34,598 nucleotides of DNA, taken from assembly GCA_048213135.1 (NCBI GenBank), contig PS015127.1, positions 84,473 through 119,070 on the forward strand, read 5' to 3'. The notes beneath the pieces were generated by a model that saw only the letters and a program-made list of their open reading frames with translations, had not been told where the DNA came from and did not search any database. A program made the translations under genes and the position numbers. Each line of letters begins with the position of its first letter. Position 1 is the stretch's first letter. This DNA is from Reclinomonas americana ATCC 50394 (Eukaryota). Shown piece by piece: positions 3,857-34,598 of the stretch.

Positions 3857-4319
3857 CGTGATCAAAGTGCAAACGAAATTGTGTCGCTTGATCGCACACG
3901 CTCGTCACACTGGCCTCTTGCCGCACGACTAGTGTGCTTCAGCGAGGCACCATGTGATCTTTTCCATCTCAGCCGCTGAGCAAACTGCTGCCCGAAACTT
4001 CATCCATCAGACTCTTCACGTTTCCACAGCGAACATCACCGCATCCTTCACCCCTCTGCTCCCAGTGTGAGATCCACAACAGCGGCGTCAAAGGAACACA
4101 GCAGTTCACTCATGCATTCACGAAACGCACCCGCTTGTGTAGGCTGGTTATTGGACTTTGGCCTACAGCGCGCGCGCGCCATTTCGATGGCAAACCCTTC
4201 TCGCGCGGGATTTGTGGCAAACCCCAAAATAGTGCATTTCACCCGTTTTTTCTATCTCTCTCTGAGCGCTGACAACCTCCGTCTTCCTCTCACAACTCTC
4301 TCCACCCAACTGAATCGCA

Positions 4320-5547
<1,228 letters not shown>

Positions 5548-12708: not shown

Positions 12709-12881
12709 GTACGTGTGGCATGTGGCATCACGAATATCTCGGATTTGCTCACAAAACNNNNNNNNNNNNNNNNNNNNNNNNNNNNNNNNNNNNNNNNNNN
12801 NNNNNNNNNNNNNNNNNNNNNNNNNNNNNNNNNNNNNNNNNNNNNNNTACACTCAAGTCTTTGCAACAGCAATCAACGCAC

Positions 12882-14837
12882 ATCATCCGAGTGAACAACG
12901 TCCACCCAGCCTTCATCCTCCTCGTCACCGTCCATGTCCTCATCCGAGAACCCATCAGCATCATCGCCATCGTGCATACCGTGCTCTGTGTAGAATAATC
13001 ACCCGGCAGTCAGTCAGAGTGTGAGGAAAACTTCTCTGCTCCACTGCATACGCACCAGCCTTGTACTTCTCCAGCAGTTGAATGTCGTCCAGCAGCGACG
13101 AGCTTGCCTGTGCGGTGGAGCCGTACACCGGCTGCTTCTCGAGATCAACATCACGTCCCTGTCCGCACAAAATCGTCAGCGAAAAGGCACCGGTGGAAAA
13201 CGAGACCTGGTGGTCGACACGCACCCGATCTTTGCGTTGCAAAAGTGACGGATTGACGGTGCGGAAGAGCTGCAGCAACGACCTCGCCGCCATCACCACG
13301 CCCTTGTTCTTGTAGTTGCGGTAGCCGACAAGATCTTGCAGCAGCACGGCCTCCATGACCAAAGGTTGGCGGGCGGAGATTTCGCGAATCGTATTCAACC
13401 TGCTCCACAGTCAGTTCTCTGCAGCGCACACACAACGCTGTCACGTGCACAATTGACAAACCCCAATGCAATGACTTCGGGCATGTTGCGGTCCACGACA
13501 AACTGGTTGGCAATCGTTTGCACCAACGGCAGCAGTGTGTCGGAGGGCACCAGCGAGTGCGTGGCCTGCACGGTGCACGCCATCAACTTGGTGACATCTG
13601 CGCGTGGAGTGAGCGAGAGCGACAAACTAGATACGCACACACAGACACGCACGCAACGTTCTTGTGACGGTGAGAGGTACTTTTGCAGGGTGGAATAGAA
13701 CGGCAAGAGGATCAACTCGTGGCTGCCAATGAGACGCGAGATCAGATCCAGGTACAGCAGGCGCACTTCGAAGCCGTCTTTGCTGCTCTTCAGGCGACCA
13801 AACAGCTTCTCCGCAAACTCTGTGTGTGTGTGTGTGCATACAGTGAGCAGTGCGCGAGTCACACAAGAACTCGGTGCAGGCAAGCGACGAAACTCTGTGG
13901 ATCATGCAGCAGCTGGATGGCCGACTGATTCACCGTCGGAGCCTTGACCTGGCGAGCACGGCGCTTGACCTGTCATGCAGAAAAAAACTTGAATCACACG
14001 CGACAAGCTACCTTTCTCTCTCTCTTTCTCTCCACACCACACAAACACACCTGCCCCATGGCACGCCGCAGGCGCGACTCCTTCTTACGCGTCATCTTCG
14101 AGCCGACACTGAACGAGCGCATCACATCGGCAATGGCAGCACCGCTGTTGACCTTGCTCGGCTCATCATCGTCGTCATCATCGCTGCCGTCGTGCTCCTT
14201 GTGCTGCGCGGCCGCATCGGACGAGCCGAGGAAAAAGTGCAGCGCAGCCACCGTCACACGCGCATGCGCCGAGAAGCACGCATCGCTAATGACCGCCACC
14301 GATCGCTCGTCACACCACACTTGCCGCTTCCACAACTCCAACACGATGCGCAGGCACGTGTGCGCCTGCTGCGGATGATCCTCCTCCATCACTCGGAAAA
14401 ACGGGGCTTGCAGCGCGCGGTTCAGTCGCGTGTCTTTCGAGTGGTGATTGATGCGGCTAATGTCGCTGACAATGTGCGCGTGCACCTGCTTGCGCACGTT
14501 CTTGTCGCTGAGCTTGAACAGCGGCAGAATGACTGGCATGCGCACGTGAGACAAGAAAGAGAAATGTGAGAGAGGCTGGGGAGCACGAAACTCGGCAGGA
14601 TCGTCTCCAGACTCATCATCTTGCGATTGCGCAGCATGAGGAGGTTGGTGACCACAGCGCGGCGTGTTGAGCCACACATCAAGTCGGCCTTGTCTGTCAG
14701 CAGCTTGTACAGCTGAGGCCGAGAATGATCAGTCCATGAGTGACGAGTGTGAAGAGAGAGAGAGAGAGAGAGAGACAAGTGCGCACCATCTCTGGCAACT
14801 TGGCGGCCCACTCGTGCTTCTGAAAGTGCGGCGCCAT
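12882..14837 (-). CDS. SDA1: SDA1 (SDAD1) 60S ribosome biogenesis protein; both ends in gaps
   Basis: Motifs 'LMLRNRK', 'DKNVRKQVHAHIVSDI', 'ELWKRQVWCDERSV', 'SAIQLLHDPQKFAEKLF', 'LISRLIGSHEL', 'QATHSLVP', 'IANQFVVDR', 'GLNTIREISARQPL', '[30 protein letters not shown]', and an acidic 'GWVDV' region. Confidence 0.95.
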
Positions 14838-15084: not shown

Positions 15085-16442
15085 GCGTGTTGGTCGCAAG
15101 CCTGGTGCGATCATCTCTCCCCTCCTCTCTGTGCCTCCTGTGTGGGCGATTGCTGATCTCTGTGTGGTGTGTGTAGGACTGGCGACGATCTTGGTTGGGC
15201 ATCGGCCGGACTCGGCCACGTATGTGCGCGCCAAGCGACGTGCTGCCGAGGTCTCAACTTGTCTTTGCCTCCTTTGCTCATTGTGGTCTGTGCTGACGAA
15301 CAATCCGTGTAGGAGTGCCACTTTGTGGATCTTCACGAGAGTCTGCCCGACAACACATCGCAGGCGGAGCTTCAGGAGATCATTCGGTGTGTGCTGAGAG
15401 GGGAGGCGTGTGTGCGTGTGTGTGCCTTGATGTGTGTGGCTTACAACGAGAGTAATCCCGATCAGACAACTGAATGCCAACGATATGTGCGACGGAATCC
15501 TTCTCCAGCTGCCACTGCCGTCACATCTCAATGGTGCGCGTGTGTGCTTGTGGATGTGGGGCGTGTGGGGAGGACGGTGGATCACCGTGTGGCGTGAGAT
15601 TCCCTGATTCTGACTCGCTGGTGTGACGCACAGAGCGTGCGGCGATCATGGCCATTGATCCGAGCAAAGACGTTGACGGCTTCCACCCGATCAACTCCGG
15701 ATTGTTGATGCAGAAGCAGGAGTGCTTTGTGCCGTGCACGCCAATGGGCATCATTGGTGCGTGTGTGAGAGAGAGAGCAATTGATGATCCCGATTTTCGC
15801 CGTTCTCTAACGGACACTCGATGTGTGTATTTTTCCGCTTGTCGCAGAGTTGTTGACGAGAAGGTGTGGTGGCTTGTGCTCCATCTCTCACGCGTGTGCT
15901 TTGTGGTCACGTAGCACTCATTGTTATGCTCCCACAGTAACATCAAGATCGCCGGCGCACACGCTGCCGTGATTGGACGATCGAACATTGTCGGGCTGCC
16001 GGTGGCCATGTTGTTGCAGCAGCGCAACGCCACGGTCACCATCTGCCACTCGCAGACGCCGAACTTGCCGGAGGAGGTCAGCCGCGCCGACATTGTGGTG
16101 GCGGCCATTGGCAAGGCCTGCTACGTGCAGGGATCGTGGATCAAGCCGGGCGCCACTGTCATTGACGTGGGCATCAACGCTGTGCCCGACGCGACCAAGA
16201 AGCGCGGCTACCGCCTCGTCGGCGACGTCGACTACGATACGGCCAGCAAGGTGGCGGGTGCCATTACTCCCGGTATGTGTGCTGATCTTTATAGGTAAAC
16301 TTGCTGCTCTGTGTTTTGACCCCCTTGCCCCTCAGTGCCCGGCGGTGTCGGCCCAATGACGATTGCCATGCTGCTCAAGTCGACTCTGTGGGGTGCTGAG
16401 CGGCGCGTGGCTCTCACCGAGGCCGACTTTGAGGCGGCGTGA
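15085..16442 (+). CDS. folD: Bifunctional methylenetetrahydrofolate dehydrogenase/cyclohydrolase; 5' end in gap
   Basis: 'PGLATILVG...DSATYVRAK', '[10 protein letters not shown]', 'KDVDGFHP', '[11 protein letters not shown]', '[11 protein letters not shown]', 'ATVTICHS', 'VIDVGIN', 'GDVD', '[17 protein letters not shown]'. Seven GT-AG introns; stop TGA at 16440-16442. Confidence 0.97.
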
Positions 16443-17027: not shown

Positions 17028-17867
17028 CCCTTCGGCTCGATGCGTAATGAGTATCCCTCCGCCGCAAAGTCATACTCGGTGGCCGCCGTCGCATGCTCCG
17101 GCAAGTGATACGATACCACCGCCTGCGGCTTCTTCGACGACACAATCACCGCCGCCAGCGGCGCCACCTTGCCAAACAACATGCGCAGAATCGCCTCTGT
17201 CATCGGCGTACTCTTCTTCCACTTGACGGCCAGATCGCACGTGTACGCATCCTGCTCCGTTTTTTGCCGCTTCAACATTCGCCTGGCCACCTCCTCCGCC
17301 GCCTGCTCCGACTCCATCTGCAACCGTCGCTTGTGCATCTCCATGCGCATAATCTCCTCCCGCGCCTCCCGTCCCAGCCCGGCCTCGCGCTTCTGTCGCT
17401 CCACCTGCGCCTGCGCCGCCTCCTGCTCGCGCTGCTGCAGGCGCTCCAGCATCTTCCGCCGATCGCCATCCTGCTGCGCAAACTTCTCCGCAATGCGTCG
17501 CTTCGCCTCGCGTCGTCGATCGTACTCGGCGCGCTTCACGTCGTCCTCGAGGAACTCGAGCACCTTGCGCAGCTGATCGAACTTGTCGGCGGCCTTGGGA
17601 TCCGGATTGCGATCAGGGTGCCATTTCAGTGAGACCTACAAAGAGAGAAAGAGAACGAGAGAGAGAGAGTGAGTGATGACAGGCAAAGGTGCGATACATG
17701 CACATGGGTGCATGTGTGTGTGTGTGTGAAAGAGAGAGAGAGAGAGAGAGGGAGAGTTGATCATTGACCTTTCTGTACGCGCGAGACAACTCGTTCTTGG
17801 TGGCTCCTGGCTCGCACTCCAGGATTGCGTACAGGTCCATGGCCAGCAGCTCGTCATCGGTGGTCAT
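17028..17867 (-). CDS. DNAJC17: DnaJ homolog subfamily C member 17 / Cwc23 (J domain, coiled coil, RRM-like); 3' end in gap
   Basis: J domain 'DLYAILE...AYRKVSLKWHPDRNPD...RAEYD' with one intron, then 'RRKMLERLQQRE' coiled coil and an RRM-like region 'LAVKWKK...LRMLFGKVAPL..VIVS.KK..AVVSY'. Confidence 0.85.
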
Positions 17868-24394: not shown

Positions 24395-27300
24395 ATGGAG
24401 CCACACGTGCGCAACGATGACCACGACGCTGGAGGCACGACACACGCTGCAGCAACGTTGCGACGCACAATATGTTCCGGACATGGCACTCAGCTCTCAC
24501 TCACTCACACACTCTTCTCCCTTCTCCACACAGGCGTCTCTCTCCTCCACTGCGCTTCCCCGCGCCGGCAGTACCGCTGCCTGCGCCACCGCCAGTGCCG
24601 CAGCCGCCGCACTTTGGCGCAAGTGTCTCCCCACGCAGTGGCACACCACCGCCCTCACAGCGACTGCCACCGCTGCCCACCGACGCTGCCAGCAGTGTCA
24701 GACGTTGCGCGCGCGCACACACACACACACGCACACAAGTAAGCGTCTAACATATACACACACTCTCTCCATCAATGCACAGCGTTGAATGCGGCTCGAT
24801 TGCTGGCCGGTCGCGGCTTCAACAATGCCGCGTCACCGGCGTCGCCGACGTCGTCGCCGCGCTTTGCTCTGGCGACCACATTGCCTCCACGTTTGGCGAC
24901 GCTGCCGGCCGCGGGAAGCGCTGAGCCGGCGGCAGCACGCTTGTCAGATGTGCGACTGCATTTGCCACCGGCGCCGTTTGCCATTCGACCGAGTCGCGCG
25001 GTGCATGATGACGAGGATGATGAGGGCGGTGATGATGAGGCGCCGCCGCCACCGCCGCCACCGCAATCGACGGCTTCGGCGTTGCGCCCGGTGACACCGT
25101 TGCAGCCGTTTGCCATGTCGATGAATCGATCGCTGGGCCCGCGTCCAATCCCGGGACAGGTGCCGTCGCCGCCGCTGGATGCGCCGTTGCAGTTCAATCC
25201 GCTCTTTGCGTCGCGCGCTGTGCGTCACTGTCGTCGTTTATTTGTGCATGCCATCGTCTCACTATGTTCTTGTTTGCTCGATGAACAGTTGTCGCAGCTG
25301 CCGNNNNNNNNNNNNNNNNNNNNGACTGGCGTTGAGCGAGCCACACCTCGCGTGTCGGTGGATTCGGGTCGACGTGCGGCCGAGGCGCTGTTGCCGGCAT
25401 CGTTTGTGGCACAGCCGCAGCAATTGCGTCCGCCGCAGCCCGTGTCCACCACCATTGGTGTGCCACACTTGTCGGGGGATGGCGGTGCGCGTCGGAGCGA
25501 TGTGTACTCGTTGCCTGTGGCTCAGTTTGAAGACTTGCGGCTGGCCGCACGCGTCCTGTCACAGCAGCAACAACAACAAGAGATGCAACTACAGCAGCAT
25601 TTCCAACAGCAACTGCAGCAACATCAACAGCAGCAGGAGGAGGAGGAGGCGAAAAAGTCCGGAGTGCGGCGTCGATGCACCGCGAGACGCTTCTGGATAA
25701 TCTTCTTGATTGTTGCTTGTATCCTCTTGCTGCTCGGCTCCGCGGCTGGAGTCTTGTATTTGTACCTGCGGCCAGAGACGGTGCCGCAGAAAGTCACCAG
25801 TGCGTTCTCCCTCGCGCCTCGTTTTCCCGTTCACTGTTTACCATTTATTCACTTTTGATTCTGCATGTGTGTCCTTCCCTCCCTCCCACCAGCCACCACC
25901 ATTGTCGTTGGATCAACATCGGGAAGCGTCACAACCACAGACGCCACACTCACAGTTCGTGGCGGTGTTGCCGCGTCGTCCGGAAAGTTCCGTTCTCGTG
26001 TCTCCCCGCTGTGTATTACCATGTTCGTTCTCATTTTTTGCGCTTCGTGCGCGTGTGCAGCATATCGACGAACAACACGGACGTGGGCTACCGCTTCTCA
26101 TCAACATCAACAGGCATGTTTGCTGTCAGCGTTCTCAATCTGGCATCGTCTGTAATCCCCGGCTCCGGCGATTCGCGCATCGTCTCCGAGCGTGTGTCGT
26201 CGTCGTCGTCCTCCTCCTCCTCCTCCTCCCCATCTGCAACAATGTGCAGCCCAACGGCAGCCAGCGACGGCCCGACTGCCCCGCCGACAACTCTTGGCAG
26301 TCCTAGTAGCAGCAATAGTCGTAATTATAGGAATCAGCCGCGGCAGGCGGCAACTGCCGCCCCGCAGTGCCAGTCGAGCGCCGGCGGCACCGCCTCGGCC
26401 AATGTCGGCGTCCAGGCGCGCGATGTCGACACGGTGCGCAGCAGCACCTCGGATCTGGCGTTTTTGCACGACGCCAAACAAGTGTTGACGTTTACGGCGC
26501 TCTCCGACTCGTTGGAGGCCGCACTTATTGACGCCAAGTTGCGCCTTGCCGTGCCTTGTTAACTATATTTCCCTCCCAGTGTCTGAATTATCGTTCGTCG
26601 CACGCAGCGTGTACATTATGCAACGCAGTCTCTACCTGGGCCACGCGGCATCGGACTCAGCCACCCTGTCGGAACGCTACCGTGCTCGACGGCGTGTTTT
26701 GCAAGACGACTCGGGTGTTCTGCGCCTCAATCCGGACTCGGCGTACTCGTCGGTCACCATCGGACAGTCGACGTTGGTCGTCAATAATAGCACGCTGACT
26801 GTCGCCGGTACCGTCTATGCGCCGGGGTACCAGCTCTCCAGCGCACCCTCTGCGTCCGGCGTGTTCTACGCCAACTGTTGCGTCTCCACTGCACGATCGC
26901 TTTGCCTCTGTTGCTGACAAACTCTTGGTCTTTTGTTAACGCTCAGCACATGTTGTCATTGGCAATTCCGGCCAGAATCGCATCAAGGTACCGGCCTCCA
27001 CCAAGGATCCTGTTGTTATCACGGGCCCTCTTGAAGTGGAGCAACCTATCTTTGTCGGCCTTGACGATGTCGGCAATCGGATCCTGAGTCTGACCAGTAC
27101 CAAACTGACGGTGGGCGACAGGCAAACGACCACCGACGTGGAGTCGGTTGGCCGCCTGGCGGTCACGGGCCCGAGTATTGCCCTCAACTTGCGCATGGCT
27201 CTTGTGTCGGGTGTGTCTGACTTGACGGTCGGAGTCGACACGGATGTGGTGAGAATACCGGGCATGCTGAGCGTCTCCAAGGCGTCCACCTTTGCGGCCG

Positions 27301-30300
27301 CCCTCACGGCACAATCCACATTGACGGTCACTGGAGCAACTACACTTCAAGGCGCCGTCACGGCATCGTCTTCGGTTACTGTGACCGGTACGCTTTCCGT
27401 GCAGGATGCGCTGACGGCACGCACACTGGCGGTCACTGGTGCCACGAATCTCGGCTCCACACTGTCGGTGTCCTCTGCCGTCACGCTCTCGTCGACATTG
27501 GCGGTGACCAGCGACGCCACATTATCGGGCGCGCTGATTGTCAACGGCGTGGTGCAGGCTCGGAGCTCGGTGGTAGTCACTGGCGATACGACCATCGCCG
27601 GCACTCTGACCACCAACGGAGCGGCGGTCCTCAATGGCTCAGTGACACTGCCAAACGGCAGTGCGCTCACCGTCGGCACTGGCGGTGCAGTATTCAACGG
27701 CACCCTGCGCACTAACGGACAGACGACTCTGGCTGGCCCTGTGCAGATCAACAACGGTAGTCTGCTGACTGTCGGTACATCGGGAGCCACATTTGCTGGT
27801 CCGATCACGATGCAGGCCGGTCAGCTGCTGACTGTCGGCACCGGCGGCCTCACGCTCGGCGGCGCGCTGCAAGTCAATGCGGCATCGTCATTCAGCGGCT
27901 CTGTGGCCGTGACTGGCGCAAATACGTTGACAGTCGGCACCGGAGCTGCGACATTCAATGGCCCACTGCGTGCCACGGCCACCTCCGTCACCACGCTCGA
28001 CGGCACGCTGGCGGTCAATGGCGCCGCAACATTCAGCGGAGCCGTAAGCGTGACCGACACCGGTTCCTTCGCGGTCGGTGTCGCTGGCATCGTCTCCAAT
28101 GGACCAATCAGTGTGGCCAATGGCGTCACACTCACGGTTCCGTATCTGCTTGTCGTTTGCTGTGCGCCCACTCACGTCCACCATACTCATGCGTTTTTGC
28201 TTCGGTATGCAGGTGGGCACCGGAGTGACGACGCTTGGCGGCGAATTGCGTGTGAGGTGTGTGTATTTTCCTTGAGTCTTTGTGTGCGCGTGATAATCGT
28301 GGCTCATCTCCGCTCTTCTCCTTTCCTCGCCAAAACAGCGGTGTCACCACCTTGTCTGGTGCGCTGACCACGAACGGCACGGCGACATTTGCCAATTCGG
28401 TTACTCTCGGCAACGCAGCGTCGCTGACGGTGGGCACTTTGGGTGCGACCTTCAACGGCCCTGTAACGCTGTCGGCCGGTCAGCAGTTGACAGTCGGCTC
28501 TGGTGGCCTGACGGTGAACGGATCGCTGATCACCACGGGTTCATCGACCTTTGGTGGTGGCGTCACCTTCAACAACTCAGTCAGCGTCAACGGCAACATC
28601 ACTGTCGCCGATGCAAAGCTGGTGACCATTGGTACGGGCGGCTTGCGAGTAACGGGCTCGGTTCAGGTGGACTCGAGCGCAGCGCTCAACGGTTCAGTGA
28701 CGATCGCCAACGGGCAGTCATTCACTGTCGGCAACGGTGCCAGCGCCATTCGCGGAACGCTTACCGTCGATGGTGCCACTACGTTTACGACCACAGCCGT
28801 ACACACTGGTGCCACCACCTTCAACGGCACTGTGACTGTTGCCGATGGCAAGTTGGTCACTATCGGCTCTGCGGGCATTGCGCTGAATGGGCCACTCGCG
28901 CTATCCGGCGCCAACACGCTGACACTGGCCACTGGGACGGCGACATTCGGGGGAGCTGCGACGTTTAGGTACGTGTGTGTATGTGTTTGTGTTTGTGTAG
29001 TCTGTTCGTTTCTCTCAGTCTGTCTGCTCACCTCCTCCTTCTTCTTTACGCAACAGTGGTGCAACCACCGTCAACGGTCAGCTGACTGTCAATGGCCAGT
29101 CGTCGTTTGCGAACAGCGTTGCGTTGACGGACGCCGCCAGTCTCACGGTGGGTGCGCTCGGTGCCACGTTCAACGGCCCTGTGACTATCAGCGACACGCG
29201 CTTGCTGCGCGTTGGCACGGGTGGCGTTACAGTTGCCGGAGTGACGACGCTGAATGGCGCGCTCACCGTGGGCGCCGCCTCGCAGTTCAACGCACCCATT
29301 GTGGTGTCCAACGGCAACGATGTGCGCGTGGGCACTGGTGGACTGGCTGTCACTGGTGCTATTAGTGCGCAATCGACGTTGAATGTCACCGGAGCGGCGA
29401 CGTTGCAGTCTTCGCTTGCTGTCACTGGTGCTACGCAGCTCAATGGTGTACTGCAAGTTGGACAGGCCACCACACTCAACAGCACGTTGCTCGTTTCCGA
29501 CACGGCCACCATCGGCGGCGCTGTCAACGTAAGCGGTCCCACAAACATGCTCGGTACCATGTACGCGCAGGGAGTTGCGCGCTTCGATGCCACGTTGAAC
29601 GCCAATGCTGCGGTGAATGTTGGTACGACACTGTCGGTCACCGGCAACACCTCAGTCTCCACGCTTGTAGCGTCCGGGCTGGTAACTGCTGGCAGTCTGA
29701 CCACCGCCGGCACTATAAATGCGTTGGGTCTCATTATCGGTGGCAGTCTGTCGACCGCAGGCACGCTGTCTGCGACCGGTTCACTGACTGTCGGTAGCAT
29801 CACGACGGGCGGCGCACTTGCGGCCACGGACTTGGTGACTGGCGGCAGCTTCACAACCACCGGTAGCATCAGCGGCGCCACGATGAGCACTGCCGGTCTG
29901 GTTTCTGGTGGAAGCCTAGCTACTGCCGGTACAGCAACTGTCACGGGCACCATTACTGGTGGCANNNNNNNNNNNNNNNNNNNNCCGGCAGTCATCAGGC
30001 CCGTCACCGTCACCGTGCCGCCAGTCGCAATGCTACCGCCACTCACCAGGCCCGACGTGCTCACCGAACCGCTCTGCAGCGACCCCACAGTTGTCACACT
30101 GCCGCCCGTAATCACACCAGCCGCCTGCACAGTGCCGCCTGTCGTCAGGTTACCCGCCGTCACCAGACCGCCAGCGATCACGGCGCCACTCGTCGTGAAC
30201 CCGCCGCCGCCCGTCACCAGGCCGGCAGCACTCACCGAGCTCGCACTCGCCAGGCTGCCCACAGATGCTGCGCCGGTGGCACCAATCGTGCCGGCCGTCG

Positions 30301-33300
30301 TCAAACTGCCGGCAGTCATCAGGCCCGTCACCGTCGCCGTGCCGCCAGTCGCAATGCTGCCGCCACTCACAAGGCCCGACGTGCTCACCGAGCCGCTCTG
30401 CAGCGACCCAACGGTCGTCACACTGCCGCCCGTAATCACACCAGCTGCCTGCACGGTGCCGCCTGTCGTCAGGTTACCCGCCGTCACCAGACCGCCAGCG
30501 ACCACGGCGCCACTCGTCGTGAACCCGCCGCCGCCCGTCACCAGGCCGGCGGCGCTCACCGAGCTCGCACTCGCCAGGCTGCCCACCGATGCCGCGCCAG
30601 TCACATCAATTGTACCGGCCGTCGTCAAACTGCCGGCCATCAGCACGCCCGTCACCGTCGCCGTGCCGCCAGTCGCAATGCTGCCACCACTCACCAACCC
30701 CGACGTGCTCACCGAGCCGCTCTGCAGCGACCCGACGGTCGTCACACTGCCACCAGTGATCAGGCCCGCAGCCGACACAGTGCCACCAGTCACAAACGAG
30801 CCGCCAGTCACACTGTTGGTGGCCGCAATGGTGCCGGCCGTCGTCACACTGCCGGCCGTCACACCGCTGCCAACCACCAGCGTACCGTTGCTGCTAATGC
30901 TGCCGCCGCTCACCATCCCCGACGCGCTCATCAGCGCCGCCAGCAGCGTGCCACCAGTGGTTACACTGCCGCCACTGACGACACCTGCCGCACTCACAGT
31001 TCCACCACTGACGAGCGTGCCGACTGTGGCGTTGGCCAGCACCGTCAGCGTGCCGTCGGTGGTCAGACTGCCACCGGCCACCACGCCCGACGCACTCATG
31101 GTACGACCTTGCAATGTGCCGGCCGTGGTGACGCTCCCACCTGTGATGATGCCGACTGCGCCAATGGTGCCACCAGTAGTGAAGCNNNNNNNNNNNNNNN
31201 NNNNNNNNNNNNNNNNNNNNNNNNNNNNNNNNNNNNNNNNNNNNNNNNNNNNNNNNNNNNNNNNNNNNNNNNNNNNNNNNNNNNNNNNNNNNNNNNNNNN
31301 NNNNNNNNNNNNNNNNNNNNNNNNNNNNNNNNNNNNNNNNNNNNNNNNNNNNNNNNNNNNNNNNNNNNNNNNNNNNNNNNNNNNNNNNNNNNNNNNNNNN
31401 NNNNNNNNNNNNNNNNNNNNNNNNNNNNNNNNNNNNNNNNNNNNNNNNNNNNNNNNNNNNNCAGTTTGACGACGGCCGGCACGATTGGTGCCACTGGCGC
31501 GGCATCGGTGGGCAGTCTGGCGAGTGCGAGCTCGGTGAGTGCCGCCGGTCTGGTGACGGGCGGCGGCGGGTTCACGACGAGCGGTGCCGTGGTCGCTGGC
31601 GGTCTGGTGACGGCGGGCAACCTGACGACAGGCGGCACTGTGCAGGCGGCTGGTGTGATCACTGGCGGCAGCGTGACGACCGTTGGGTCGCTGCAGAGCG
31701 GCTCGGTGAGCACGTCGGGCCTGGTGAGTGGCGGCAGTATCGCAACTGGCGGCACGGCGACGGTGACGGGCCTTATGACTGCCGGCAGTTTCACGACGGC
31801 TGGCACGATTGGTGCCACCGGCGCGGCATCGGTGGGCAGCCTGGCTAGTGCTAACGCAGTGAGTGCCGCCGGCCTGGTGACGGGCGGTGGCGGATTCACG
31901 ACGAGTGGCACCGTGGTCGCTGGCGGTCTGGTGACGGCGGGCAACCTGACGACAGGCGGCACTGTGCAGGCGGCTGGTGTGATCACTGGCGGCAGCGTGA
32001 CGACCGTCGGGTCACTGCAGAGCAGCTTGGTGAGCACGTCTGGCCTGGTGAGCGGCGGCAGCATTGCGACTGGCGGCACGGCGACGGTGACGGGCGTGCT
32101 GATGGCCGGAAGTTTGACGACAGCCGGCACGATTGATGTGACTGGCGCAGCATCGGTGGGCAGCCTGGCGAGTGCTAACGCAGTGAGTGCTGCCGGCCTA
32201 GTGACGGGCGGCGGCGGGTTCACGACGAGTGGCGCCGTGGTCGCTGGCGGTCTGGTGACGGCGGGTAACTTGACGACGGGCGGCACTGTGCAGGCGGCTG
32301 GTGTGATTACGGGCGGCAGTGTGACGACCGTCGGGTCGCTGCAGAGCGGCTCGGTGAGCACGTCGGGCCTTGTGAGTGGCGGCAGCATTGTGACTGGCGG
32401 CACGGCAACGGTGACGGGCCTGATGACTGCCGGCAGTTTCACGACGGCTGGCACCATTCAAGCAGTCGGTGTGATCACTGGCGGCAGTGTGACGACCGCG
32501 GGCAGTTTGCAAGGACTGACGATGAGTGTATCGGGCGTTATCAATGGTGGCAGTCTGAATACGGTCGGCACGATTGTCAGCACTGGTTCCCTGACAGCCG
32601 GAAGTGTGACGACCGGCGGCGTGGTGACAGCCACCGGCCTAATCACGGGTGGCAGTGTGACGACGGCAGGATCGTTGCAGAGCGGCAGCGTGAGCTCCAA
32701 CGGTCTAATGTCGGGCGGCAGTCTGTCGACGGCAGGAACGCTTGTGAGCGCTCTCTCGGCGACAGTGGGCAGTTTGACAACTGGCGGTTCCATGTCGGCC
32801 GCCGGGCAAGTGACGGGTGGCAGTTTTTCGACAAGCGGCTTGATCTTGGCGACGGGAACAATTGTGACGCAAAGCGATGTGTTTGCGGGTGGGCGAGTGG
32901 CTGCCGTGGGGTTGGTGCAAGGCGGCAGCTTGTCGACGGCTGGCCAAGTGCTGTCGGTGGGTGATATGATAAGTGGCGGTAATGTGTCTGCCAGTGGAGC
33001 CGTACGAGGCGGCAGTGTGAGCACGAGTGGTGGTGTGATTGGCGGAAGCATGTCGACGTCGGGCACCGTGAGTGCGCAGGGTGTGATGAGCGGCGGCAGT
33101 CTGACGACGATTGGCACGATTGTGGCGGGAGGACTGGTTAGTGGAGCCAGTCTGAGCACCACGGGTACCGTGGTGGCTGGCGGCGCACTTCGTGCTGCCA
33201 CCATCACGTCGTCAGCTGACGTGACCACCGCCACCATTGTCGCCTCCGGACTTGTAAGCGGTGGTAGCTTTGTGACGTCTGGCACCGCTACAGTGACGGG

Positions 33301-34598
33301 TTTGCTGTCGGGTGGCAGTCTCAGCACTGCAGGCACAGCTGTAGTTGCCAGTGTGCTTACTGCCGGCAGCGTAACGTCGGCTGGTGCCATCACGGGTGAT
33401 TCACTTTCGGCTGCAGGCATTGTCTCAGGCGGCAGCATGACAACCAACGGCACTGGCGTGATTGGTCGCACTCTCAACGTTGGTGGCGTGCTGACTGCTG
33501 CAAGTGACCTGTCTGTGACCGGCGGTAGTGGGGCCAAGTTCACTGGGCCCGTGTCGGTCGACGGTGGCACCACCTTTGGTGGCCGTGTGGACATGAATAA
33601 CGTGGTCAATGTGACTGGAGCGGTCACGCTATCCAACACTGTGAATTCCTCCAGTCGCATCACCGCCAGCTCTCTGACATCAACCGGCAACGTGGATTCG
33701 CTGTCGTTGAATGTCGCTGCGGCGGCTACTGTGGGCACAACGCTCACAGCGGCTACAGTGACTAGCACAGGCGCAGTATCGGCCTCTGGTACTGTGTCTG
33801 GCTCTTCGTTGTCCACGAGCGGTTCGTTGTCGGCGGGCGGTGCGCTTATGGTGGGCAGTGTTACTACTGGCGGGGCGATTTCCGCTGCCGGTGTCATCAC
33901 TGGTGGGAGCGCGGTGGTCAACGGCGCCGTTTCCGCTGCTGGCACGATTTCCACCAGCAGTTTGACGACCGCCGGTGCCATCAATGCTGCTGGTGCACTG
34001 CTTGCCGGCAGTTTGTCTACCGGTGGCACGCTGAATGTAGGCGGCGTGATTACGGGGGGCAGTGTTACAACGCAGGGCTCCCTCGCAGGCTCCTCTGTCA
34101 GCACGGCCGGTGTGATTTCCGGAGGCAGCATTACGACTGGTGGATCACTGGCAGTGGGCAGCCTGACGGCTGCCACCAGTGTGTCCGCTGCCGGTCTGAT
34201 TGCTGCCGCCGGCGGTGTGCAAACCGTCGGCGCTGTGAGCGCCGCCGGTCAGCTGTCTGCAGGCAGCATGTCGACCGCGGGCACCTTGATTGTTGGTGAT
34301 GTCATCACGGGCGGTTCGTTGACGACCACCGGCAGTGTTCAAGGCCTCACCACCAGTGCCTCGGGCCTCGTGAGCGGTGGCAGTTTCGCCACGCAAGGCA
34401 CCATAATTGCCACCGGTGTGATTCTCGGTGGCAGCCTCACTACGGCTGGTAGTATTGCTGCTGCGGGCTCTCTGTCGGCTCGCGATGCCACTCTTGTTGG
34501 TTTCGTCGCCGCCAGTGGCATTGTCAGTGGCGGCAGTCTGTCGACGACTGGCACGCTGACTGTGACACAGTCTATCACTGCCGGCTCGTTGTCGACCT
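24395..34598 (+). CDS. Giant (about 3000 aa or more) single-pass, probably type II membrane protein with a Gly/Thr/Ser/Ala/Val-rich beta-solenoid-like repeat ectodomain; runs off the window
   Basis: Pro/Gln-rich N-terminus, basic 'VRRRCTARR' before a TM segment 'FWIIFLIVACILLLLGSAAGVLYLYL' (about 25691-25768), then 'LTVGTGGATFNG'-type and 'GGSLTTAGTIxAxG'-type repeats. Ten introns lie before 29057. Segment 29985-31185 is coded on the minus strand as assembled. Confidence 0.8.
29985..30760 (-). repeat. Two full plus one partial 324-bp (108-aa) coding tandem repeat units, inverted orientation
   Basis: 'ccggcagtcatcaggccc'-type boundaries at 29985, 30309 and 30633, spaced 324 apart; reverse complement of the units at 31463-32434. 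Confidence 0.9.
31463..32434 (+). repeat. Three 324-bp (108-aa) near-identical coding tandem repeats
   Basis: 'agtttgacgac/agtttcacgac' boundaries at 31463, 31787, 32111 and 32435, spaced exactly 324 apart. Unit SLTTAGTIGATGAASVGSLAS...VTGLMTAG. Confidence 0.92.

Follow-up and report, generated by a model that had tools for sequence, protein, structure and literature searches.

The SDA1 gene of Reclinomonas americana ATCC 50394 contains three introns that begin with an unusual donor, A|GTTTCGT or C|GTTGCGT (the bar marks the end of the exon), among others with ordinary donors such as G|GTGCGC. This raises the question of whether splicing really cuts at these sites and, if so, which RNA recognizes them. 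The window analysed was a stretch of 34,598 nt (contig PS015127.1:84473-119070) from an intron-rich assembly of 108 Mb; coordinates without a contig name refer to this window.

Introns of the SDA1 gene

The gene belongs to the SDA1/SDAD1 family (Pfam PF08158), which we take to be a 60S ribosome assembly factor. Five exons were tested singly: three matched the SDA1_HEAT domain in order, two of them above the cut-off, and covered profile positions 19-58, 61-206 and 235-288, and the other two (exons 6 and 7) gave no Pfam match. A homologue profile was built from 107 of 150 homologues, those of 300-950 residues. Against it the spliced model with seven introns (434 residues, no stop) scores 504.9 bits, with homology from residue 11, and the protein is an ordinary SDA1 with nothing unusual about it. 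Alternatives to each junction were all frame-keeping, stop-free GT/GC-AG pairs within 45 nt. The features are as follows.

14787..14837, minus strand: exon 1, ATG at 14837
14713..14786, minus strand: intron 1, ordinary donor G|GTGCGC, 74 nt, top among 14 alternatives
14592..14712, minus strand: exon 2, SDA1_HEAT positions 19-58
14533..14591, minus strand: intron 2, shifted donor A|GTTTCGT, CAG end, 59 nt, phase 1
14051..14532, minus strand: exon 3, SDA1_HEAT positions 61-206 (E 2.7e-37)
13970..14050, minus strand: intron 3, ordinary donor G|GTGTGT, 81 nt, top among 25 alternatives
13894..13969, minus strand: exon 4, by the homologue profile
13820..13893, minus strand: intron 4, shifted donor A|GTTTCGT, CAG end, 74 nt, phase 1
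13658..13819, minus strand: exon 5, SDA1_HEAT positions 235-288
13598..13657, minus strand: intron 5, shifted donor C|GTTGCGT, CAG end, 60 nt, phase 1
13462..13597, minus strand: exon 6, by the homologue profile
13400..13461, minus strand: intron 6, ordinary-register donor G|GTTTGT, 62 nt, top among 7 alternatives
13225..13399, minus strand: exon 7, by the homologue profile
13159..13224, minus strand: probable intron 7, ordinary donor G|GTGCGT, 66 nt
12986..13055, minus strand: probable further intron, ordinary donor G|GTGCGT, from the gene finder only

The acceptor of intron 3 is less certain, as another alignment chose 13949. Probable intron 7 leads its 20 alternatives by only 2.2 bits and is absent from the gene-finder calls. 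Past the probable further intron the gene enters a gap of Ns near 12850.

A preliminary description of this DNA had proposed GT-AG introns at 14591-14533, 13893-13820 and 13657-13598, and all three are present on the minus strand (introns 2, 4 and 5). Their junctions came first among 12, 39 and 18 alternatives, with leads of 7.6, 5.6 and 7.1 bits, respectively. The spliced product had also been said to align without gaps to the SDA1 family, and among the homologues that cover each junction the alignment is indeed gap-free for up to six residues on either side in 129 of 132, 91 of 95 and 78 of 82. When the spliced alignment was run without any dinucleotide rule, introns 4 and 5 were placed exactly, but intron 2 slid by 8 nt with its length of 59 nt kept. 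Sliding both ends of a shifted intron by 1-2 nt changes the local score by 1.5 bits at most, and for intron 2 a slide of -1 or -2 scores 0.6 bits higher. Conservation of SDA1, which had been held to pin the donors, thus pins the lengths of the introns, but the exact base needs the GT-AG rule. The boundaries listed above for these three introns are almost certainly correct on the alignment evidence. All three have GT-AG ends and restore a conserved frame upon removal, as U2-type introns do.

PRP8 introns and the position of the cut

The homologue alignment supports the view that the shifted donors are cleavage sites, but SDA1 is not the best evidence for it, as had been proposed; PRP8 is better. 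A PRP8 profile was made from 45 of 120 homologues and 15 introns were aligned. Four of these have shifted donors, each preceded by A or T, and nine of the 11 others are preceded by G. Three of the four were placed at GT-AG without any dinucleotide rule. If the cut is moved one base later, so that the intron starts with TT, a consensus residue is replaced at three of the four sites and the scores fall from 28.1 to 23.5, 28.8 to 25.9 and 19.2 to 17.3 bits (costs of 4.6, 2.9 and 1.9 bits). The fourth is ambiguous because of repeated bases, and at two sites a slide of -1 gives a tie. Judged by these alignments, PRP8 pins this type of donor more sharply than SDA1 does, and cleavage at the shifted donors is supported.

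PRP8 also carries an in-frame insert (L038:1-650, on C729; also C728 near 28400-29630) with a LAGLIDADG-like motif and a His-Asn end before Cys. From its sequence the insert looks like an intein, and it lies upstream of what we take to be the classical intein site.

A second class of donor across the genome

A self-training gene finder, whose donor model contained only GT, or GC with a penalty, was run on 490,329 bases and gave 1334 introns, the commonest start being GTTGCGT (145 introns). Contigs C1 and C2 (2 Mb each, 48% GC, no microsatellites) are probably bacterial DNA in the assembly and were left out. An unsupervised mixture analysis of the 1066 GT introns from genes scoring 60 or more separated a sharp component (21%) from an ordinary one (59%); a further, diffuse component (21%) probably reflects errors of the model. 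The sharp component has +3T at 0.99, +4G at 0.80, +5C at 0.89, +6G at 0.93 and +7T at 0.81.

We defined shifted donors by rule (+3T, +6G and +5 not G), which assigns 214 of the 1066 introns to the shifted class, 575 to the ordinary class and 277 to neither. The exon ends in G at 18 of 214 shifted donors, in comparison with 448 of 575 ordinary ones. With a learned donor model, 1215 introns gave 299 shifted, 773 ordinary and 143 neither. In 82,647 held-out bases with 167 introns the numbers were 33, 97 and 37, and G ended the exon at five of 33 shifted and 75 of 97 ordinary donors. The word GTTKCGT opens 145 of the 1066 modelled GT introns, more than expected by chance, since of the 5599 GTs that lie within these introns only 19 begin it. 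Taken together, the data show a class H|GTTKCGT to which 20-25% of the modelled introns belong; its donor corresponds to the G|GTGNGT usual in this organism, displaced into the intron by one base. By their donors, SDA1 introns 2, 4 and 5 belong to this class, and further shifted donors were modelled in two other genes of the window.

8053, 8344 and 8560, plus strand: modelled shifted donors of one gene
25987, 26538 and 26877, plus strand: modelled shifted donors of another gene

Apart from the donor, the two classes are similar. Lengths and acceptors are alike; shifted acceptors are CAG in 200 of 214 and the base that follows is unbiased. The composition of the last 36 nt is also alike, CTRAY occurs in 25% of shifted and 27% of ordinary introns, and none of the 727 4- and 5-mers compared at the 3' ends differs between the classes beyond multiple testing. 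A minor-type branch box was found in none of 214 shifted introns, and the class has neither the RTATCC donor nor the TCCTTRAC branch box of U12-type introns. Phases are more evenly distributed in the shifted class (107/90/102) than in the ordinary class (340/281/152). Among 98 pairs of introns at shared positions, none joins a shifted with a non-shifted donor, but some of these pairs are the same DNA and the result carries little weight.

Two U1 genes

A search of the genome with the U1 covariance model found three genes: one canonical U1 and two identical haplotype copies of a variant.

C343:5715-5887: canonical U1
C429:9347-9500, haplotype copy C479:4310-4463: variant U1 with the 11-base arm AUACGUAACUU

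Compared with the canonical arm, that of the variant is changed at positions 5, 8 and 11, and it lacks the canonical ACUUAC. The variant nevertheless matches RF00003 over the full model (E 2.2e-14, 64 bits); both genes score slightly below the Rfam cut-off of 69.5 (64.0 and 63.7). It keeps stem-loops 1-4, the Sm site and the loops that serve in U1-70K and U1A binding. Seven of 34 predicted pairs differ on both sides between variant and canonical U1, and the predicted fold of the variant has a z of -3.5. The haplotype copies show no differences in 154 nt, and their loci align at 96.8% and 92.7%. The variant U1 gene is therefore structurally intact. The contigs that carry the U1 genes each hold donors of both classes (14 and 21 on C343, 9 and 23 on C429), which argues that both genes come from one organism.

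The upstream word CCCACAA is common to five of seven snRNA genes, those of the variant U1, the U6atac described below and one U2 type included, and occurs in 68 of 15742 random 75-nt windows; the upstream region of the canonical U1 is masked. It lies about 55-70 nt before the snRNA starts, with a TGCAC-like word nearer the start. The two words probably mark an snRNA promoter that serves genes of both polymerase classes.

Of 16 matches to a stem-loop 4 pattern nine were read (three by Rfam), and the only U1 genes were the three already known. A pattern scan of metagenome contigs, which is weak evidence, found no relatives of the variant; two pattern matches were rejected as they had no Rfam match and lay in DNA resembling bacterial coding sequence. 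A search for U1-C, limited by short exons, gave one weak false match.

Pairing of the two U1 RNAs with donors

The donors of SDA1 introns 2, 4 and 5 pair with the variant U1 at -6.7 (in the +1 register), -5.6 and -9.6 kcal/mol, whereas the canonical U1 reaches -0.6 at best, 0 and -0.6 at best, respectively. The same is seen across the genome. In fixed registers the median for shifted donors is -8.5 kcal/mol with the variant (+1) and 0 with the canonical U1 in either register, and for ordinary donors it is -6.0 (canonical U1) and -1.4 (variant). With free register and bulges allowed the medians are -8.5 (variant) versus -1.6 (canonical) for shifted donors and -3.7 versus -6.2 for ordinary donors. 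The variant is the better partner for 286 of 299 shifted donors and the canonical U1 for 664 of 773 ordinary donors, although the variant is the better partner for 107 of the ordinary donors too. Mean Watson-Crick pairs of shifted donors in the +1 and normal registers are 5.1 and 3.0 for the canonical and 6.8 and 1.9 for the variant U1. Of 4455 arms with three substitutions the variant ranks fifth. The class rule contains +3T and +6G, and the pairings of the shifted class, the energies above and the U6 pairs below included, are therefore partly built in. U1 therefore pairs better at +1 than in the normal register, and the normal-register pairing with canonical U1 and U6 that is typical of U2-type donors is lacking.

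As a check without motif selection we used all 508 donors that follow non-G exon ends. The arm that best fits them is the variant arm at seven of eight positions (3-10), the eighth being a G-U pair, and the canonical arm matches five. At -2 there is no preference for the base that would pair with the U at position 11 of the variant arm, and A, which would form a Watson-Crick pair with arm position 6, stands at +4 in only 1% of the shifted class. A compensatory relation of -1A to +7T stands out only in the refined set (p 0.004), where it can be an effect of selection; pooling the unbiased sets gives p 0.052. C occurs at +5 in 88% of the shifted class versus 43% at the matching +4 of ordinary donors, an excess that is expected because the variant has G5. 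From these pairings the variant U1, presumably expressed and used, probably reads the shifted class, and the two U1 RNAs seem to divide the intron starts between them.

Other spliceosomal RNAs and PRP8

The snRNA searches of the genome scored only the best candidates, so that further copies may have been missed. One type of U6 was found, with a normal ACAGAGA box, and no second major U6 was found with up to one mismatch in the helix I region. One type of U5 was found, under the Rfam cut-off. A PRP8 paralogue was considered and rejected, as all copies encountered are consistent with a single gene present as two haplotypes. There are two clearly different types of U2 with the same branch-binding region. 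Beside the second lies a cut-down U2-like copy (L014:2459-2660, minus strand) without the branch-binding core. A Rfam scan of 129 kb around snRNA genes gave no new snRNA.

The major U6 forms both core pairs with 82% of shifted donors at the +1 register and with 0% at the normal one. Additionally, +4 of shifted donors mirrors +3 of ordinary donors (G 0.82 and 0.67, T 0.14 and 0.15, respectively). Both results favour a shift of the whole motif.

Candidate parts of a minor spliceosome and one minor intron were also found.

C392:96657-96788, haplotype C1225: U6atac (RF00619, 37.8 and 34.9 bits against a cut-off of 33)
C9488 (L108:1501-1654; also L109): U12 candidate, divergent (26.5 bits against a cut-off of 53)
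L043:2429-2350, minus strand: AT-AC minor intron of 80 nt in an ORC3-like gene

The U6atac, the only one among the best candidates scored, has the AGC triad, internal stem-loop, 3' stem-loop and U run, but in its box C13 and C14 replace the A and G of the Rfam consensus. In the standard register its G15 and C14 pair with +5 C and +6 G, both together in 88% of the 299 shifted donors, of which +6G is part of the class rule. It lacks full complementarity to the minor donor from +4 to +8: the ORC3-like intron, the sole minor intron found in the DNA analysed, has a textbook minor donor and a branch-like word, and this donor mismatches the U6atac at +6, +7 and +9. Minor donors with +6 G that would fit the altered RNA were sought as ATATCGGT; the intron screen let through none of the 11 such words, and the only one accompanied by a branch-like word lies before a ubiquitin-like start codon. 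The helix I segment of the U6atac pairs with the two U2 types and the U12 candidate at -5.6, -5.7 and -5.5 kcal/mol. The U12 candidate has a branch-binding box and an Sm site, and its helix I segment is the same as in U2. No U4atac partner was found in about 0.75 Mb of loci, overlaps included.

Proposed mechanism

The model that we favour, and consider probable from the sequences, is that the shifted introns are major-type introns recognized by a dedicated variant U1 and then handed over in a shifted register to the major U6. The variant U1 would first read H|GTTKCGT one base downstream of the normal register, U10 of its arm pairing with -1, C9 with +1 G, A8 with +2 U, A7 with +3 U, U at position 6 with +4 G, G5 with +5 C, C4 with +6 G and A3 with +7 U. 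As C9 would pair with the intron's own first G, the exon would be freed from ending in G. Ordinary donors would be read by the canonical U1. The shifted donor would then pass to the single major U6, whose ACAGAGA box would pair with +6 G and +7 U and so also lie one base downstream, and one extra base would presumably be held between the cut and the U6 helix. The cut would stay before GU despite the shifts of U1 and U6, and the branch region, CAG acceptor, U2, U5 and PRP8 would be common to both classes.

With a single type of U6 and a single PRP8, U6 probably also reads the class shifted; provided that the variant U1 reads these donors, we think this somewhat better than an even chance. Moving U1 at a human tandem donor left the cut site unchanged (PMC11162779), so U1 alone cannot fix the boundary. 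The literature search gave no precedent for a +1 register of U6, and that source describes a -1 one.

Alternative explanations

The chief alternative concerns the U6 step: the variant U1 might hand the donor to the re-tuned U6atac, working with U2 and an ordinary branch site, and no shift would be needed at the active site since G15 and C14 pair with +5 and +6 in the standard register. The only U6atac found is altered, both core pairs fit 88% of shifted donors, the textbook minor donor fits it poorly, its helix I pairs with the U2 types as well as with the U12 candidate, and two U2 types exist. In human cells changes at U6atac positions 14/15 re-target it to a donor mutated at +5/+6 (PMC4980772), and mixed major and minor machines have been proposed for other protists (PMC11347168). 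However, the U12 candidate with its matching helix I gives the U6atac an ordinary partner, and the altered RNA may merely be a minor RNA that has drifted; a C at one position is expected by chance one time in three. Moreover, +7 U (82%) faces a mismatch with C13, +4 G (82%) faces A16, there is no extra pairing at +8 or +9, and the shifted introns are without the minor-type branch box. We regard this route as unlikely. Less likely again is that, as in the rare human cases, the donors are read by protein factors or by the ordinary U1 in a shifted or bulged register, and that the variant is a by-product or a general helper at donors containing C. Human U1 accepts shifted and bulged registers (PMC4856993, PMC11162779), and the variant pairs moderately with the ordinary donor G|GUGCGU at 13224 (-7.0 kcal/mol), but the canonical U1 pairs far more weakly than the variant with shifted donors in any register, the excess of +5 C is that expected from G5, and the A8 change harms pairing with ordinary donors while it fixes the shifted register.

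The remaining alternatives question the class itself. The motif could be ordinary and the true cut one base later, or the introns could be mis-modelled; in SDA1 alone a slide of both ends by one base costs only 0.6-1.5 bits. A later cut with the AG acceptor kept shifts the frame, however, and sliding both ends replaces the consensus residues of PRP8 noted above; the near-constant CAG ends and the unbiased base after them also speak against this reading, which is extremely improbable. The class might also be the footprint of intron-making transposons, or the assembly might mix two organisms with different U1 RNAs, and the near-fixed 7-base start, flat phases and two types each of U1 and U2 would suit such origins. 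Only 30 of 299 shifted and 48 of 773 ordinary introns resemble another intron, however, the 12 such entries listed are haplotype or neighbouring pairs, and the many near-identical bodies typical of introners were not seen in the shifted class. The presence of both classes within single genes (SDA1 and PRP8) largely excludes either origin, and both are found on contigs of both U1 and both U2 types. We consider these origins very improbable.

Comparison with known systems

Human 5' splice sites recognized in a register shifted by +1 have been described (Roca and Krainer 2009, as reported in PMC4856993 and PMC11162779), and non-canonical registers together account for about 1.5% of human sites (PMC11162779). 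In both organisms all the U1 pairs lie one base downstream and the cut lies before GU, but in humans the ordinary U1 reads the shifted sites, whereas here there is a separate U1 gene, the class amounts to 20-25%, and the arm changes at positions 5 and 8 remove mismatches of the +1 register. At the STAT3 tandem donor C42 and A41 of U6 also lie off their usual +5/+6 (PMC11162779); that shift is one base upstream at a single site, and here it would be one base downstream in a large class.

U1 arms have co-evolved with donors in Entamoeba (ACAAAC) and Mastigamoeba (ACGUAC), and Physarum is said to have two variants, a standard and a modified U1 (bioRxiv 10.1101/2022.06.08.495308). As in Entamoeba and Mastigamoeba, the arm is altered to suit an unusual donor, and the U5-to-G change is the same as that of Mastigamoeba. 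In all three, however, the changes face +3/+4 in the normal register and suit the main donor consensus. In R. americana position 8 of the arm has changed, pairing has moved to another register, and two U1 RNAs divide two classes by the last base of the exon. Two versions of U1 that share the same 5' end occur in a tunicate whose introns are mostly non-canonical (PMC13326754).

The shifted donors resemble U12-type donors in +5 C and +7 U, in having a second snRNA set for a second class, and in the pairing of U6atac positions 14/15 with +6/+5. They differ in +3 U, +4 G and +6 G, in their ordinary acceptors, in the lack of a minor branch box and in being read by a U1 paralogue rather than U11, and the real AT-AC intron is separate in the genome. 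A literature search whose coverage left out most subscription papers found nothing on this donor class or on such a pair of U1 RNAs.

If the favoured model is true, this is a natural case of two U1 snRNAs dividing the introns of one genome, and the shifted register that is rare in humans would be routine. Thousands of sites could then be used to test if a variant U1 RNA acts on substrates of its own, and what determines the cut while both U1 and U6 are paired one base away from their usual place. Either outcome at the U6 step would be new, be it a routine +1 register of U6 or U6atac acting on major-type introns. The second would mean a third, hybrid splicing route (variant U1, U6atac and U2) for about a quarter of introns, beside the ordinary major and minor spliceosomes; it would be categorically new but, on the sequence evidence, is doubtful. 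Exons that precede shifted introns need not end in G, and standard gene finders would get these introns wrong.

Other genes in the window

4314-5547, plus strand: histone H3-like gene
15085-16442, plus strand: FolD-like gene
17028-17867, minus strand: DnaJ-domain gene
25324-34598, plus strand: very long, largely intronless, repetitive frame rich in Gly, Thr and Ser

The last of these has a weak match to bactofilin at 26940-28364, and from its composition the product looks like a beta-helical surface or fibre protein.
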